From a virus (Duplodnaviria; Caudoviricetes), in IMG/VR virus record IMGVR_UViG_3300013121_000041, positions 46,966 to 110,965 of that record: a stretch of DNA of 64,000 bases; one strand, given 5' to 3'. Below the pieces are notes generated by a model. That model was not told the DNA's origin. It ran no database searches and saw nothing but the letters and a program-made list of their open reading frames with translations. The position numbers and the translations under genes are program-made. Positions 21,917 to 39,523 of the stretch are shown here, one piece after another; positions within the stretch are counted from its first letter, which is position 1; every line of letters starts with the position of its first letter.

Positions 21917-23665
21917 ATGAAACAAAATTCCGGCGTCGTGGAAATGGGAGCACATTCCGTCTTCTCGCGGTTGCTCGCGGCCGAAGACGTCACCGTCCTT
22001 CACACCGACGATCCGACGGCCTCTTTTGACGTCGTGAAACGTGTTCTCCGTCTCCCACGCTGGGACGTGTCCGACACCGTTTATAGCTGGTTGATCGTTC
22101 ATGAGGTCGGCCACGCACTCCTGACGCCGCCAGACGAATTGCACACCGCGATCATGTCGAAAGAGAAATGGGAGCGGCCGATCTTCGCACAGGTGCTGAA
22201 CGTCGTTGAGGACGTGCGGGTTGACCGTCGCCAGAAACGGAAATTTCCGGGCGTGAAAACGTGGTACGCGGCGGCGGCCGAAGAGGCCGTCGCGGAAGAC
22301 CTGTTTCAGTTGTCGAAGGTAGAAGACGTCAACAAAATGTCCTTCGTTGATCGCATCAACCTGTACTTCAAACTCGGTATTTACGATCTTTCGGACGTGT
22401 CGTTCACGGACGAAGAGATTGAAATCGTCGAACGGATTCGCGGCCTCGAAGAATTTCACGAGGTCGTAGCCGAGGCCGAAAAATTGTTCGAACGCCATAA
22501 GCAGGACGCGCAGAAAATCCTCACTGCGTCCGACGATTCTGGCGACTCCGCTGGTGATGGTAAAGGCGTAGACGTGATCGAAGTGTCTGGCGACGAACTC
22601 ACAGACCTCCTGAAAAAAGCATTTCGTTATGGGAAGATGGACGTCAAATCACAGAAGAACCTTGAAAAGGCCGTCGCGGCGACGATCGTAAAATCGACGT
22701 CACACGTCGAGCACATCGTCGATCCTGTGAAAAATGTCGTCGTGACTAAATCTTATCTGGGCCTTCCAGATGCCGGGTGTTTCAGGACGGCTACAGATTC
22801 GGCCGCCAATATTTCGTTCATGGTGTCGTCCTTCGAACGACGGAAGCGGGCACGTGCACTTGAGAAGGTGGGCGAATCGAAGACCGGTTCAATCGACACG
22901 AAACGGTTGTGGAGTTTCATGACGGAGGACGACATTTTCTTGCGCCGGGCGACTGAACCGAAACACACGAATCATGGGTTCGTGTTGTTGATCGACATGT
23001 CCGGTTCGATGTCCGATTCACAACGCGGTGTTTTTTATCAGGCGTGGTTAACGGCCAGTTTCGCCCGCCGCATCGGCGTACCTTTTGAAATCTATGGTTT
23101 CTCCTCTGGCGGTGAAAACAAGAATGTTTTTGGATCACACCAACTCACGAAGTTTTGCACTAACCTCTCCACTCCAGAAGAGATCGTGTCTCTCCTGAAA
23201 GTGGCGACCGGTTCGTCGAGCATTGCACAGGGAGGGACGCCGTTGACTTCGACGATGGTGTCGATGGTGCATCTGGTTGATGATTTTCGCCGTCGTACTG
23301 GCGTCGATGTGATGAATTTCTTCCTCCTGTCGGATGGCGAGTGTGATATTTCTACCGACGACAAATCATCGTTCATCGATCAGAAGACGAAGGGTCGGTA
23401 TTCGGCCGAACTGTCGTATCACGGGGGCATGAACCTCGTTCCGGGGATGCTTCGTTTCATGAAGGATCACACGGGCGCTCGGGTGACGGTGTTCTACATC
23501 ACCGACGAACAGAAAAGTGAGGGGAAGAATTACGGCAATTTCACCACGGTCGAAGGAAAATACGGGGCCGACACGACGTTTTTCGTGCGGTCGGCGTCGT
23601 TTGGCCAATTGACCAATCGCAATAATAGGGTTATGTTCGACAAGATCGTCGAAGCCATGGCTTGA
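21917..23665 (+). CDS. CobT-like vWA protein with N-terminal HExxH domain
   Basis: HEVGHAL, NVVEDVR, DMSGSM MIDAS, GGTPL, SDGE. Confidence 0.8.
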   Translation: MKQNSGVVEMGAHSVFSRLLAAEDVTVLHTDDPTASFDVVKRVLRLPRWDVSDTVYSWLIVHEVGHALLTPPDELHTAIMSKEKWERPIFAQVLNVVEDVRVDRRQKRKFPGVKTWYAAAAEEAVAEDLFQLSKVEDVNKMSFVDRINLYFKLGIYDLSDVSFTDEEIEIVERIRGLEEFHEVVAEAEKLFERHKQDAQKILTASDDSGDSAGDGKGVDVIEVSGDELTDLLKKAFRYGKMDVKSQKNLEKAVAATIVKSTSHVEHIVDPVKNVVVTKSYLGLPDAGCFRTATDSAANISFMVSSFERRKRARALEKVGESKTGSIDTKRLWSFMTEDDIFLRRATEPKHTNHGFVLLIDMSGSMSDSQRGVFYQAWLTASFARRIGVPFEIYGFSSGGENKNVFGSHQLTKFCTNLSTPEEIVSLLKVATGSSSIAQGGTPLTSTMVSMVHLVDDFRRRTGVDVMNFFLLSDGECDISTDDKSSFIDQKTKGRYSAELSYHGGMNLVPGMLRFMKDHTGARVTVFYITDEQKSEGKNYGNFTTVEGKYGADTTFFVRSASFGQLTNRNNRVMFDKIVEAMA

Positions 23666-32858: not shown

Positions 32859-34250
32859 GTGGCCCGCAAGAACGTAAAGGCGAAGGAAGTTTTTGACGCC
32901 ACCACTCACGGTGGGGCATCGACGAAAAGTGTCTCGAACGAAGATCAATTGCGTCGTGCCGTCCTCTCATGCCTCCTGTGGGAGGATCAGTTTTATGAGG
33001 ATGGACAGAAGATCGCTGATCGGATCGTCCAATTGGCGTCGACCTGTTCGCCGGAATTCGTCGTCGATCTGGCGATCGAGGCCCGGTCGAAGTTTCACCT
33101 CAGACACGTCCCCCTCCTGCTTTTGACGGTCGTTGCAAAGACCGGGGCGGGTAAGCCCGGCCTCGTCGCCAACGCCGTTGAGACCGTCATCAGCCGCGCC
33201 GATGAATTAGGCGAGTTGCTCGCCATCTATTGGCGTGACGGTCGCCGTCCCATCTCCGCTCAGTTGAAGAAGGGTCTTGCACGCGCGTTGCGGAAGTTCG
33301 ATGAGTACGCCCTCGCGAAGTATAATCGTGATACGGTCGTCAAGTTGCGCGACGTCCTGTTCTTGACCCACGCGAAGCCGAAGGACGACGAGCAGGCGGC
33401 CCTGTGGCGAAGGCTCGTCGATGGGAAACTCGTGACCCCCGATACGTGGGAAGTCGCACTGTCGAAGGGCGGCGATAAGAAGGATGAGTTTTCCCGTCTC
33501 CTCGCGGAAGGCAAGCTCGGGTATCTCGCATTGCTCCGCAATTTGCGGAACATGGTCGATTCCAAAGTCGAGCGTAAGTTGGTTCGCGATGCCATCCGCG
33601 CGCGTAAGAATGGGGCCGACAGGGTTCTTCCGTTCCGTTACGTTGCCGCAGCGAAGCACGCACCGTCGTTCGCCGATGACATCAGCGATGCGTTCTTGCA
33701 ATCGTTCGAGGGACAGCCGAAACTGCCGGGGAAGACGGTCGTCGTCATCGACGTTTCGGGTTCGATGTATGGTGGGGTCATGTCAAAAAAGAGTGACATG
33801 AACCGAGCCGACGCTGCCTGTGCACTCGGTGCCATCATGCGGGAAGTTTGCGAAGACCCGATCATCTATGCGACCGCCGGTAACGATGCTGTGCGGAAGC
33901 ACAAGACCGTTCCCGTCGCAAATTACCGGGGGCTTCCGCTCGTCAAGTCGATCTATGATATGTGCCATCCTCTCGGCGGTGGTGGAATCTTCCTCAAGCA
34001 GGTGATGGATTTCATCCATGCTGATGTGGGTGAAGACATCGATCGTGTCGTCGTCATTACGGACGAGGCCGATTGTGGAATTGGCGTTGAAGATTCTCCG
34101 TTGCGTGCACGTGCACTCGGAAAGCGGAACTACGTCATCAACGTTGCGTCCTATGAACACTCGATTACGAACGGGGCGTGGACGAAGATCAACGGATTTT
34201 CCGAGAGCGTCGTCCGTTACATCATCGAGAATGAAACGCCGAGAAATTGA
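32859..34250 (+). CDS. Ro60/Rsr (TROVE + vWA) RNA-binding protein
   Basis: LLWEDQFYE, TWEVALS, YLALLRNLRN, VLPFR, DVSGSM, ITDE. Confidence 0.9.
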   Translation: MARKNVKAKEVFDATTHGGASTKSVSNEDQLRRAVLSCLLWEDQFYEDGQKIADRIVQLASTCSPEFVVDLAIEARSKFHLRHVPLLLLTVVAKTGAGKPGLVANAVETVISRADELGELLAIYWRDGRRPISAQLKKGLARALRKFDEYALAKYNRDTVVKLRDVLFLTHAKPKDDEQAALWRRLVDGKLVTPDTWEVALSKGGDKKDEFSRLLAEGKLGYLALLRNLRNMVDSKVERKLVRDAIRARKNGADRVLPFRYVAAAKHAPSFADDISDAFLQSFEGQPKLPGKTVVVIDVSGSMYGGVMSKKSDMNRADAACALGAIMREVCEDPIIYATAGNDAVRKHKTVPVANYRGLPLVKSIYDMCHPLGGGGIFLKQVMDFIHADVGEDIDRVVVITDEADCGIGVEDSPLRARALGKRNYVINVASYEHSITNGAWTKINGFSESVVRYIIENETPRN

Positions 34251-34824: not shown

Positions 34825-34848
34825 GGGCGGGGGAAGCCCCGCCCTTTT
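34825..34848 (+). terminator. Rho-independent terminator
   Basis: gggcgggg-gaag-ccccgccc-tttt. Confidence 0.75.
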
Positions 34849-34863
34849 CACTTTGGTGGAATA

Positions 34864-35031
34864 ATGATCATCGATCGATTTACCGAGGAAAATTCGTTCC
34901 TCTCAAATTTTCACCGTATTCCAGTCGTGGTCCGTGGAACGACGTATAAAACGGCAGAACACGCATATCAGGCTTTGAAGGCGGCGACCAAACGCGATCA
35001 TGATTGGGTGACGTTACTGAGGTTGGATTGA
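34864..35031 (+). pseudogene. Truncated NADAR (YbiA-like) gene, N-terminal ~50 aa only
   Basis: Manual translation MIIDRFTEENSFLSNFH...YKTAEHAYQALK then stop. Confidence 0.7.
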
Positions 35032-35167: not shown

Positions 35168-35185
35168 CTAATGTGAGGAACGGTT

Positions 35186-35857
35186 ATGAAACGATTGGTT
35201 ACGATCAGACAGGCCGAAGGTGGGAAAGATTCCCGTCTATTTTGCGATGACCTACGCGACGCATATGTTCGCATGTGTCGCCTGAACGGATGGGACGTCG
35301 GTTGACTCACGGACGACATGACACAGGTGTCGTTCGTCGTCAGTGGTGCAGGTGCTGATTCGTTCGATCGGGAGGCCGGTGGTCATCGTATTCAGCGGGT
35401 TCCGCCGACGGAGCGGAACGGCAGGGTCCACACGTCCACCGTCGTCGTATCGTCCATAGATCAGCTATTGCCGGAAAAGATCACCGTCCGAGACGGTGAT
35501 CTTCGCGTTGAATTTTTCTCCGGAACCGGTAAAGGCGGACAGAAGCGCAACAAGTCCCAGACGTGCGCTCGCGTCATCCACATCCCTACAGGCACCATCG
35601 AAACGAGACAGGGACGATCCCGAGAGGCCAACGTCGGGGCCGCGAAGGCGGCGATCGTCCGCCGCTTGAACGACGGTGCGGATGCCATCGCAGCATCGTC
35701 GAGGTTCGCCGAGAAGCGCAGACAGATGGGGTCTGGTGAACGCGGCGACAAGATACGGACGTATCAATTTCAGCGTGGGGTCGTTAAAGATCATCGTACT
35801 GGAAGGCGGGCGCGTATCGATGACGTCCTCGTTGGACACTTCGATCTTTTGTGGTAA
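35186..35857 (+). CDS. RF1-like class I peptide chain release factor lacking domain 1, with in-frame UGA at 35303..35305
   Basis: GAGGA RBS + ATG 35186; EGGKDSRLF..DL..AY upstream of the stop, in frame with EAGGHRIQRVPPTE (PxT), GRVHTST, GGQ, KIRTY. Confidence 0.85.
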
Positions 35858-35910: not shown

Positions 35911-37377
35911 ATGACATATTGTTACACGGCGGCGAACCTACGTGGGTCGAACGTCCTATTTCGGGGATATAAAGACGGGAAACTATTTTTCCGTAAAGAA
36001 AAATGGGAACCAACCGTTTACGTTCCGACGAATCGTGACGCCGGTTGGCACGATCTCAGTGGTCGAAAGCTAGAACCGAAAAAATTCCAAGACGTTCAAT
36101 CGTATCGTAATTGGATCGACCAGAATTCCGGGATCAGTAATTTCGAGTATTTTGGTTTTGAAAATCACAAGACGGCGTTCCTATCCGCTGAATTCCCCGG
36201 AGAGATCACCTACGATCCCGAAGAGATCATCGTCGCTTTCATCGACATCGAAACGGATTCGGCAGACGGGTTTCCGAACGTCGCTCTGGCAGATAAGGAA
36301 ATCACCGCTATTACCGTGAAGGTCGGGGGGTCCTACGTCGTGTTCGGCGTCGGGGATTATACGCCCCATCGACCGGACGTTGAATACAGGAGATCGTCGG
36401 ATGAAAGGACGATGCTCCGCGACTTTCTGAAATTCTGGGAGGAGATCGTCCCTGACGTGGTGTCGGGGTGGAATTCCGAGGGTTTCGACGTCCCCTACAT
36501 TATCCATCGTCTACAACGACTGTTTGGAGAAGATGAGGCGAGACGCCTATCTCCGTGGCGGATTTTGAAGTCCCGCGAGGTCCACGTTTCCGCGACGGAG
36601 ACGACCATCGTGTGGGAAATCTTCGGCATCGAACACATCGACTACCTCCTTCTTTACAAGAAATTTTCCGGCAAGATGCAGGAGTCCTATCGACTGGACT
36701 ACATCGCCCACGTCGAAAAACTCGGTTTCAGGAAGATTGATTATTCAGAGTACGGGAGTCTTCATAGACTCTATCGCGACGATCATCAGAAATTCATCGA
36801 GTATAACGTTCGTGACGTCGAGATCATCGATAAACTGGAAGAAAAAACCAAATTGATCCGGATGGCGATTAACATCGCCTACTCGTCGAAGGTTACGTTC
36901 GGCGACGTGTTCATGACGACGCGCGTGTGGGACGGAATCTGCTACAATTATTTGAACGAGCGGCGGATCGCCGTGCCGACCAAACGCCAGTCTCAGAAGT
37001 CGTCGCAATTCGCCGGAGCCTACGTCAAGGAACCGAAACCCGGTGTCTATGGATGGATGATGACGTTCGACGTGGCGTCGGAATATCCGTCGTTGTTCAT
37101 GCACTACAACACGTCTCCGGAGACGTTCGTTGAAGTTCTCCCGGTCGATACCGACAGATTGTTGAGTGGTGGGGGGCACGATCATCTCCCCCATCTTCTC
37201 GAAAAGAACCTGTCGATGGCCGCCAACGGGGCGTGTTTTCGGCGTGACGTTCGGGGATTCATGCCGACCCTAGTCGATAAATTTTTTGAAGAACGTCAGA
37301 CGTATCGTAAACAGGCATTCGCGGCCAAAAAATTACTCGAAGAAGTTGAAGAGGAAATCCGACGTCGTGGAATTTGA
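35911..37377 (+). CDS. DNA polymerase gp43, N-terminal subunit (exonuclease + palm motif A)
   Basis: DIET, GWNSEGFDVPY, YNVRDV, GAYVKEP, FDVASEYPS; ends in fingers coiled coil. Confidence 0.92.
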   Translation: MTYCYTAANLRGSNVLFRGYKDGKLFFRKEKWEPTVYVPTNRDAGWHDLSGRKLEPKKFQDVQSYRNWIDQNSGISNFEYFGFENHKTAFLSAEFPGEITYDPEEIIVAFIDIETDSADGFPNVALADKEITAITVKVGGSYVVFGVGDYTPHRPDVEYRRSSDERTMLRDFLKFWEEIVPDVVSGWNSEGFDVPYIIHRLQRLFGEDEARRLSPWRILKSREVHVSATETTIVWEIFGIEHIDYLLLYKKFSGKMQESYRLDYIAHVEKLGFRKIDYSEYGSLHRLYRDDHQKFIEYNVRDVEIIDKLEEKTKLIRMAINIAYSSKVTFGDVFMTTRVWDGICYNYLNERRIAVPTKRQSQKSSQFAGAYVKEPKPGVYGWMMTFDVASEYPSLFMHYNTSPETFVEVLPVDTDRLLSGGGHDHLPHLLEKNLSMAANGACFRRDVRGFMPTLVDKFFEERQTYRKQAFAAKKLLEEVEEEIRRRGI

Positions 37378-38440
37378 TTTTGTAAAAGCATTGATAGATA
37401 AATCATCATATGACAAGAAACGAGAAATTGTCAGGTATGTACGTTTCGTATTATCAGCAACTGTCGAATATTCGGGCACGTTCGAGAAACATCATATATT
37501 ACCCGTCGCACTCTTTCCAGAATATAAAAAATCGAGTTGGAATATTGTTTCTATTGATGCTAGAGTTCATTATATTGCGCATTATATGCTCGCTAAAATT
37601 TTTGGGGGTAAAATGTGGTTCGCCTTTAATAATATGCGACGAATTTTCCGACTGGATGTACATCGAAACCCCGGAAAATCATCAAATATGTTGTATTCAT
37701 ATGCAAGAAAATATCTCGCCGAGGAACTTCGAAAAATAAATCTCGGAAGAAAATTTGACGAATCCCAAAAGAGAAAAATGTCCGAGATGAGGAAAGGCAC
37801 TATTGTAGTTCGGGATGAGACGGGTAAAAAATTCAGAACATCGGTATTTGACGAACGGTATTTGTCCGGGGAACTAATACCACATCAAACGGGAAGAAGG
37901 CACGGCGCAGAGACAATACAAAAAATGTCCGTCAATAACGGTGTCACCGGAAAATCTCTATATACGGATGGCTCCAAGTTTATATTCTTGAAATCGACTG
38001 ATAAAATTCCGTCTGGTTTCGTTCGCGGGCATTCAACAGAAATGAAAGAAGCGATGTCGCTGCGGGTAAAAGATACTATCTGGATCACAGACACTTTAAC
38101 CGGGAAAAAATTTCGAACTAAAGACGAAGATATTTTAAGCAATCCGAGATATGTGCGTGGGCGTGGTGAAGACGGTGGGTTTAATTATATTAATAGTTTG
38201 ACTATGGTCATAAACCTGATCACGTTGAAATATGAAAGAGTATCCGTGCTCGAACAATGGCACTATCCATACAGTGGACACCGCATTCATAATATTACAT
38301 GTTTTACCGATAATGGATTTGTTATGTTAGGGCGCAGTGTTTTAAGTAGATACCTGAAGATTAGTGGTAGATCGATGGAACATGTGATAGAGGTTCCATT
38401 ATTGCAGTTCAAATATGGAGATGAGAAACCGTGGAAATAA
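37367..38440 (+). CDS. Free-standing HNH homing endonuclease with NUMOD3-like repeats
   Basis: EKHHILP...N...VHYIAHYML; GRKF.E..KRKMS, GRRH..ET..KMS; AT-rich relative to flanks. Confidence 0.8.
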   Translation: MEFDFVKALIDKSSYDKKREIVRYVRFVLSATVEYSGTFEKHHILPVALFPEYKKSSWNIVSIDARVHYIAHYMLAKIFGGKMWFAFNNMRRIFRLDVHRNPGKSSNMLYSYARKYLAEELRKINLGRKFDESQKRKMSEMRKGTIVVRDETGKKFRTSVFDERYLSGELIPHQTGRRHGAETIQKMSVNNGVTGKSLYTDGSKFIFLKSTDKIPSGFVRGHSTEMKEAMSLRVKDTIWITDTLTGKKFRTKDEDILSNPRYVRGRGEDGGFNYINSLTMVINLITLKYERVSVLEQWHYPYSGHRIHNITCFTDNGFVMLGRSVLSRYLKISGRSMEHVIEVPLLQFKYGDEKPWK

Positions 38441-39523
38441 AAAATATATCTAACGCGGACCTTTTGGATTTGCGTAAAAAGGCGATGATGGAATATACGA
38501 AATATGACATCATGCAAAGAACCAAAAAGGTGTTACTTTAACGGCTTCTATGGGGCGACCGGTACGCCGTCGTTTCGTTTCTTCAATCTCATTCAGGCGG
38601 AGGCGATCACCCTGTCTGGACAGTTCACCGTGATGACGGCTGAACGCACGTTGAATGATTTGATGAACGCCCTGTTGAAAACGAGAGGCGTCGAGTACGT
38701 CGTCTATGCCGATACGGATTCTTGTTTTCTCTCTGTCGAAACCCTCGTCGAGAGAGTGTGTCCCGGATGGGAGAATGGTGACGTCGTCGATTTTCTCGAT
38801 ACGTTCGCGCGGGAGAAAATTCAGCCGACGTTGGAGGCGGCGTTCGAAAAGATGCGCGCCGACATGAACGCATACGATCAGCGGATTTCGATGAAACGGG
38901 AGAAGATCATCGACAAGGCGATCTTCACGGCCAAGAAAAGGTACATCCTCTCCGTCCTCGATGAGGAGGGTATCCGATTTTCAGAACCGGAGATTAAGGT
39001 CACTGGCCTTGAATCCGTGAGATCGACGACGCCGGAAGTGTGTCGAGATTATCTGAAAAGATCGTTCAAGGAAATTCTAACTGGAGACGTGGACCGGGCG
39101 CGGTCGTTCATCGATGCCGTGAGGGCCGAGTGGGCGGACATCCCAGTTGAAGACATTGCCCTGACCACGTCCGTAGATGGTCTCGACGTTTATTTCGACG
39201 GGCAGACGTTGTACCGAGATCGGACACCGATGCACGTCCGCGCTGCGATCCTTTATAATCACAAGATCGCCGAGGATGGACTCCAAAATAAATACGAGGT
39301 CATTAAAAATTCCGACAAGATCAAATACACGTATTTGACGATGCCGAACCCGACGGGAGAGAACGTGATGGCGTTCGTCGGCATTTTGCCACCGGAGTTC
39401 GGGTTGCACGATTACGTGGATAGGAATAAGATGTTCGAGCGGTCATTCTTGTCGCCCCTCGATAAGATTTTTGAATCCATCGGTTGGTCGATCGAAGAAA
39501 GATCGGCATTAGAGTTTTCGTGA
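38431..39523 (+). CDS. DNA polymerase gp43, C-terminal subunit; needs a +1 frameshift at 38536..38542
   Basis: GTG 38431 gives MEIKN...QRTKKVLL*; +1 frame continues NGFYGA, AEAITLSGQ, YADTDS, KKRY, GLESVRSTTP. Confidence 0.85.

Follow-up and report, generated by a model that had tools for sequence, protein, structure and literature searches.

How is a complete protein made from a phage release-factor gene whose reading frame contains a stop codon? This question was raised by a locus at 35186–35857 (plus strand) of the window, the 64,000-nt stretch of DNA analyzed here, which is part of a single 110,965-bp contig. The locus is an RF1-like frame of 223 codons that encodes domains 2–4, with the PPT and GGQ motifs, and is without domain 1. 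A Shine-Dalgarno-like GAGGA (35175–35179, plus strand) lies 6 nt upstream of the ATG at 35186, and the first 39 codons (35186–35302), which include a TGG at codon 36 (35291–35293) and match the PCRF profile, are followed by a single in-frame TGA at 35303–35305 (codon 40) in the context GGT TGA C. The frame is unchanged beyond this stop (GGT TGA CTC, with no shift), and the remaining 183 codons (35306–35857, with the TAA at 35855–35857) encode the rest of domain 2/4, domain 3 and a C-terminal FDLLW, with PPT at 35402–35410 (residues 73–75), GGQ at 35534–35542 (residues 117–119, domain 3) and no further stops or frameshifts. The ORF listing of the window gives this gene as two pieces only, 35186–35305 (39 aa) and 35318–35857 (179 aa). 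The initial annotation had joined the ribosome-binding site, the ATG, the 39 codons, the TGA and the downstream release-factor motifs in one frame, and both its coordinates and its sequence were confirmed. Upstream, an intrinsic-terminator-like hairpin at 34825–34844 (plus strand; eight G-C pairs followed by a T run) probably closes the preceding transcription unit, so that the release-factor unit would start 3′ of it.

The identity of the protein obtained by reading through the stop was analyzed with profiles, sequence comparison and structure prediction. It matched Pfam PCRF (profile positions 103–194; 67.5 bits) and RF-1 (4–116; 72.9 bits) without a break across the stop, and the 39-aa piece alone matched PCRF (E 1.8e-5). 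The NCBIfam RF1 match covered positions 107–333 of 347 (E 1e-48); the RF2 model matched more weakly (2e-27), and the PrfH model (2.5e-12) only over the GGQ domain (residues 96–195). Against the RF1 equivalog models TIGR00019 and NF001859 the protein scored below the cut-offs (165.8 bits vs 400, and 160.9 vs 423). Domain 1 (about 105 residues) is missing, given that the match begins at RF1 model position 107, where the whole family begins. The window protein fits the gathered family of short RF1-like proteins, which are about 222 residues long, start at domain 2, carry GGHRIQRVPPTE and GGQ and end in FDLLW. In sequence comparison with PDB entries, RF1 scored 116–126 bits and RF2 55–69 bits. When the protein was aligned to the RF1 of E. 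coli and Thermotoga, the RF1-type decoding string GGHRIQRVPPTERNGRVHTS aligned with its E. coli counterpart, and the RF1-type elements for reading stop codons (Q-R-V-P-P-T-E...H-T) were found to be kept, together with the catalytic GGQ. A PxT tripeptide goes with RF1-type reading of UAA and UAG, and here the PPT and the RF1-like switch residues argue against reading of UGA by the factor itself. The AlphaFold (AF2) model (pLDDT 88.2) consists at its N-terminus of a strand (residues 2–11), a helix (13–34, with the AEGGxDS motif) and a second strand (37–43), which places codon 40, and with it the stop, inside a predicted β-strand of domain 2. The model superposed on ribosome-bound RF1 at TMq 0.86–0.89 and on RF2 at about 0.80. 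The proposal of an RF1-like factor without domain 1 was borne out by these comparisons.

The conservation of the stop was determined in 160 genes from 80 IMG/VR and 80 metagenome loci. Exactly one in-frame stop was found in every one of the 160, and it was always TGA. It is located at codon 36 in 157 genes, where it takes the place of a conserved RF1 tryptophan codon, and at codon 40 in the window and in two relatives, L111 and L139. In these three genes codon 36 is TGG and the TGA lies four codons downstream, so that Trp 36 either reverted to TGG or stayed TGG in this lineage. All other tryptophan codons of the gene family are TGG. In the tree of the part downstream of the stop, the three codon-40 genes form one deep clade (SH-aLRT 88); L111 and L139 are diverged, at only about 48% identity, and although the synonymous sites of the trio are saturated (pS about 0.8), the stop has been kept. 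Codon 40 is normally a hydrophobic position and encodes Leu in 72% of the relatives. Among 95 representatives, the base 3′ of the TGA was A, G or C and never T, and the codon before it was Gly in 93. The terminal stop was TAA in 152 of the 160 genes. Purifying selection was observed on both sides of the stop, with a median dN/dS of 0.075 for codons 1–35 and 0.117 for codons 41 to the end (192 unsaturated pairs); no part of the gene is more constrained than its first 39 residues. Both halves are therefore under selection as one protein. Conservation of the TGA among the relatives rules out chance, and, as read from the sequences, the internal stop is a built-in expression gate and not damage.

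According to these results, the gene probably encodes a phage version of RF1 without domain 1 whose full-length form is made by programmed UGA readthrough, in an amount set by RF2 on the one hand and readthrough on the other. Continuity of the 0 frame and selection on both halves, together with the lack of a restart codon or a suppressor tRNA described below, point to readthrough as the route to the functional protein. The earlier claim that the full-length protein arises only in this way is well supported by the conserved stop, the purifying selection on both of its sides and the lack of a suppressor tRNA.

Four other explanations of the stop were weighed. UGA might be a sense codon: the whole genome might be recoded (code 4), or the phage or its host might supply a dedicated suppressor tRNA. 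RF1 genes are known from recoded phages (bioRxiv 10.1101/2021.08.26.457843), and the public databases contain 222–226-aa versions of the protein with Trp at the stop position. Under code 11, however, the greedy ORF density of the genome was 0.90 and TGA was the commonest stop, ending 87 of 134 ORFs, whereas translation of TGA as sense fused ORFs and lowered the coding density. Code 4 was rejected on these two counts, and the phage uses the standard code. Moreover, the restriction of TGA to one fixed position in a family whose other Trp codons are all TGG is not what recoding would give. A survey of same-frame ORF pairs split by one stop was also made across the genome (235 pairs) and was uninformative. 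The scan for a UCA-anticodon tRNA proposed in the initial annotation was run with ARAGORN: neither the window nor the 110,965-bp contig yielded any tRNA gene, only a permuted tmRNA, and no UCA anticodon was present among the 619 tRNAs that flank 80 of the relatives. Recoding or a dedicated suppressor is thus considered improbable.

The database versions can be accounted for in another way. The protein search gave about 1,600 relatives. The best of them measured 222–231 aa, had Trp where the stop lies and came mostly from contigs of about 1 kb. The database protein P0022, which corresponds to L111 475–1140, has 339 aa and runs past the true TGA stop of L111 at codon 224, so that the full-length database proteins look like code-4 gene calls on these contigs of about 1 kb. 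The two closest relatives were shorter proteins of 172–175 aa on longer contigs, P0095 (60%) and P0113 (53%), which correspond to the downstream piece. The database copies are therefore either code-4 translations with Trp at the TGA (P0002, P0088, P0022) or truncations of 172–179 aa, a systematic annotation artefact.

Several RNA genes were observed in the same analysis. The tmRNA is located outside the window at about 22144–22530 on the minus strand of the contig (G000:C1; L208 645–1031), with the ARAGORN tag ANDNGVLNEVRLAA. It is of the alphaproteobacterial two-piece type (Rfam RF01849, 134.6 bits), which hints at an alphaproteobacterial host. In the flanks of loci L001–L160, 15 distinct tRNA-Trp(CCA) genes were found near the release-factor genes, and ten of them have a U11:A24 pair, a count that stands without a background frequency for comparison. 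A U11:A24 pair also arises by the classical Hirsh UGA-suppressor mutation.

An equally improbable explanation is that readthrough is not required and that the gene yields either two products, a 39-aa peptide and a 179-aa protein started at ATG 35318, or the downstream protein only. This in-frame ATG lies four codons past the stop, and gene callers give proteins of 172–179 aa for the relatives (P0095 and P0113 among them). But an ATG within 15 codons past the stop was found in only 3 of 141 distinct relatives, and any of ATG, GTG or TTG in only 29, which makes a conserved restart unlikely. In addition, no Shine-Dalgarno sequence was seen before 35318, and the ATG is buried in a predicted hairpin. 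The upstream part is also the one under the strongest constraint, and it supplies a strand, the long AEGGxD helix and part of the second strand of domain 2.

Translational bypassing, in which the ribosome would hop between two Gly codons as it does in T4 gene 60, or insertion of selenocysteine is still less probable. The Gly that precedes the UGA in nearly all representatives would be the take-off codon, a later Gly lies 10 codons on in the main lineage and 14 codons on in the window, and a hairpin follows the stop. However, in none of the 160 genes does the stretch that would be skipped contain another stop. Each of its three indels is a multiple of three, RF1 residues align with it, and the frame is the same on both sides of the stop. 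The site is a conserved Trp rather than Cys or Sec, and neither an RNAalifold consensus nor an Rfam match in the window was obtained. Least credible of all is a dead gene, with a sense codon changed to TGA by a recent nonsense mutation or misread as TGA in sequencing. Pseudogenes are usually marked by just such a lone in-frame stop, and the Leu codon found at position 40 in most relatives is one step from TGA. But codon 40 is likewise TGA in L111 and L139 at saturated synonymous divergence, and all 160 genes have their one TGA within 4 codons. Both halves of the gene are under strong purifying selection, and it has no other stops or frameshifts.

RNA folding was analyzed downstream of the stop in the window and in its relatives. 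In the window, a hairpin was predicted at 35302–35343 (plus strand; dG −19.6 kcal/mol), whose inner 11-bp stem pairs 35309–35319 with 35327–35337 and begins 3 nt after the UGA, while the outer stem (35302–35306 with 35339–35343) covers the UGA; ATG 35318 lies inside. By shuffling, this hairpin was not exceptional (z −1.2 to −1.8), and no comparable hairpin was found in L111 or L139, which also have the stop at codon 40. Over codons 35–46 of the main lineage, synonymous variation dips. A hand-set hairpin 6 nt after the UGA was 69% paired in this lineage, compared with 30–44% when the partner was slid, and its covariation score was 0.299 compared with 0.189 in shuffles (reached by 0 of 500), in a test that is biased given that the hairpin was taken from one of the tested sequences. 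The average folding energy after the UGA was below that of the rest of the genes (mean z −0.8), but dips of this size occur at other positions too, which makes the hairpin a lead and not a finding. RNAalifold on 49 diverse sequences returned no consensus pairs and no family-wide structure, and an Rfam search of the window gave no match at gathering thresholds. A stimulatory hairpin behind the UGA is plausible.

A mechanism can be proposed for readthrough at this gate. UGA is read by RF2 only. Most ribosomes would stop at the UGA of codon 40 through the host RF2 and release a fragment of 39 residues; on a minority, the UGA would be decoded by a near-cognate tRNA (most probably tRNA-Trp) and translation would continue to the end of the 223-residue factor. 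Trp is the residue usually inserted at UGA in bacteria, where the reader is the near-cognate tRNA-Trp, and the TGA of the main lineage stands at a conserved Trp; Trp is thus probably the residue inserted at the gate, which in the window would sit at the normally hydrophobic position 40. The yield of the factor would be set by competition between RF2 and readthrough at the UGA and would rise when termination at UGA is slow, and the hairpin right behind the UGA may raise readthrough. As only RF2 reads UGA, we infer that output must depend on RF2 activity at the gate codon. Since the decoding residues are of the RF1 type, specific for UAA and UAG, the UGA gate is not obviously self-sensing, and these residues favour a factor specific for RF1 codons, which would be under cross-regulation, over a UGA-reading factor, which would be under true autoregulation. 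A guess at the purpose of such an arrangement is that it may keep the supply of a factor for termination or rescue self-limiting, as part of a phage kit for maintaining translation.

More distant relatives were collected by a scan of species-representative genomes, mostly MAG contigs with a few isolates (Jiella, Pararhizobium, Thiobacillus denitrificans, Achromobacter anxifer and Novimethylophilus). Against GenBank phages, the best tblastn hit had 37% identity, and megablast of 12 kb gave no match. Where the distant relatives have an in-frame stop, it is TGA in 13 of 13, at codons 34–36 or 50–51. In 19 others a +1 frameshift site was found instead, with CUU UGA C/G in 17 and CUU UAG C in two (L170 and L183), and in several of these GGGGG lies three nt upstream in the arrangement of prfB, for example GGGGG CAC CUU UGA C. 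Such sites occur in L174 (7859–8519), L180, L181, L192, L194 and others, including Thiobacillus denitrificans DSM 12475, Achromobacter anxifer, Novimethylophilus kurashikiensis and many MAGs. Every member with a readable N-terminal region has a gate, either a TGA or a +1 site, within codons 34–52. The tree of the downstream part is divided into a frameshift-rich clade and a readthrough clade (basal split support 100%), with the codon-40 trio inside the latter, and the type of gate has changed at least seven times on it. The independent prfB-like CUU UGA C sites point to the same coupling to RF2, and the UAG at the frameshift site of two relatives indicates that the RF2 link is not universal. 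That the gene may sense RF2 shortage across factors, as the initial annotation suggested, fits the data, and this putative role gains weight from the frameshift sites of the distant relatives.

The neighbourhood of the gene was also examined. About 0.9 kb upstream, the window carries a TROVE (Ro60-like) gene of 463 aa (32859–34250, plus strand), and no TROVE homologue was found near any of the relatives. In Cluster C mycobacteriophages, a Ro-like protein, an RF-1 gene and a tmRNA are annotated (PMC9583779). Between the terminator-like hairpin and the release-factor gene lies a 55-aa ORF (34864–35031, plus strand) whose match to the start of the NADAR domain is sub-threshold (21 bits, cut-off 35). 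About 150 nt with no ORF separate it from the release-factor gene, and it may be what is left of a gene. Downstream, a family-B DNA polymerase was found in two ORFs (35911–37377 and 38504–39523, plus strand), the first with the exonuclease and the start of the polymerase domain and the second with the rest. A 384-aa ORF without a Pfam match (37286–38440, plus strand) lies between the two pieces and overlaps the end of the first, so that the polymerase looks like one split by an inserted element. A Pfam scan of the nine neighbouring ORFs at this locus revealed no RtcB.

Among the relatives, the gene is located among tRNA arrays, to which the 619 tRNAs in the flanks of 80 loci belong, and in two loci a tmRNA adjoins it. 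An Rnl1-type RNA ligase lies within a few kb at about 30 phage loci (for example, L047 3706–4596 and L030 7375–8265), which links the gene to RNA repair. In Novimethylophilus, directly 5′ of the short release-factor gene (L194 5530–7740, plus strand), a 737-aa protein is encoded in which a kinase and a phosphoesterase are fused to a T4 Rnl1-type RNA ligase. In many phages, the neighbourhood of the release-factor gene is thus one of translation maintenance, of which the genome of the window has only the tmRNA.

Control of a release-factor gene by recoding is a textbook case for bacterial RF2 and has been demonstrated once for the eRF1 of a giant virus. The RF2 gene prfB is autoregulated by a +1 programmed frameshift at CUU UGA C with an SD-like element (PMC12421855, PMC5009743). 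Like prfB, the window gene encodes a class-I release factor and has, early in its frame, a UGA that needs recoding, with output that would rise when UGA termination is slow, and its distant relatives carry what looks like the prfB cassette itself (GGGGG, 3 nt, CUU UGA C). It is unlike prfB in that readthrough stays in the same frame, with neither a CUU slippery codon nor a +1 shift with an SD-like stimulator, in that the protein is of the RF1 type by sequence and fold, and in that the site lies in domain 2 (codon 40) rather than in domain 1 (codon 26). With bacterial RF1 (prfA), it shares domains 2, 3 and 4, the PxT motif (as PPT), GGQ, the Q...E...HT decoding residues and the fold; unlike prfA, it lacks domain 1, is interrupted by UGA, is borne by a phage and scores below the model cut-off. 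A 2025 survey of prfB and prfA reported no evidence of recoding in bacterial prfA (PMC12421855).

Among viruses, the class-I release-factor gene of Mimivirus (R726) and Megavirus (mg280) needs both stop-codon readthrough and a frameshift, which has been shown experimentally and was read as tight self-limitation (Jeudy et al. 2012, PMC3521657). There too, a termination factor is encoded by a virus and its own gene needs readthrough of a stop. Those factors, however, are of the eRF1 type with unrelated sequence, belong to giant viruses of amoebae and depend on two recoding events, whereas recoding at the gate in the window is predicted from sequence. In the recoded Lak, Jade and Agate phages, RF1 and RF2 genes have been reported as tools of code change that are themselves encoded in the standard code (bioRxiv 10.1101/2021.08.26.457843). 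These class-I release factors, too, are encoded by phages and are thought to alter how termination proceeds in the infected cell, but those phages reassign a stop genome-wide, whereas in the phage of the window the code is standard and only its own factor is gated. The comparison with PrfH (RF-H; TIGR03072), which pairs with RtcB2, held in one respect: domain 1 is absent from both. There is also a link to RNA repair, through the TROVE gene upstream and Rnl1 near the relatives. In other respects it is an analogy only, given that the PrfH model scored 46.7 bits against a cut-off of 166.65 and that the codon-reading domain of the window protein is canonical and RF1-like. Full-text literature searches turned up no RF1-type or phage release-factor gene described as interrupted by UGA. 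New in the window are the displaced stop (codon 40), the hairpin lying correspondingly further downstream, and a carrier genome that has an alphaproteobacterial-type tmRNA but no tRNA genes.

A more specific role in infection can be put forward tentatively, as a possibility that is less likely than not. The gene may be a sensor of termination stress, the short factor being made only when UGA termination by the host RF2 falters, as in late infection or when the translation machinery is damaged by host defence or by the phage. In that case it would work independently of RF3, as a ribosome-rescue factor or a backup terminator, together with the phage tmRNA and the tRNA arrays and Rnl1-type ligase of the relatives. 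The gate itself would be the selected trait, kept while it moved between codons (36, 40 and 47–51) and between mechanisms (readthrough and a prfB-like +1 frameshift).

A large, purely metagenomic family of phage RF1-type factors thus displays the logic of prfB through plain UGA readthrough, with a gate that is conserved across sequences only 45–50% identical and that has moved by four codons in the window. If readthrough is true, the annotation of these genes can be corrected, as gene callers now split them or mistranslate them with code 4, and a natural, compact cassette for UGA readthrough would be available for study. It would also be direct evidence that phages tune translation termination in hosts whose genetic code is the standard one.
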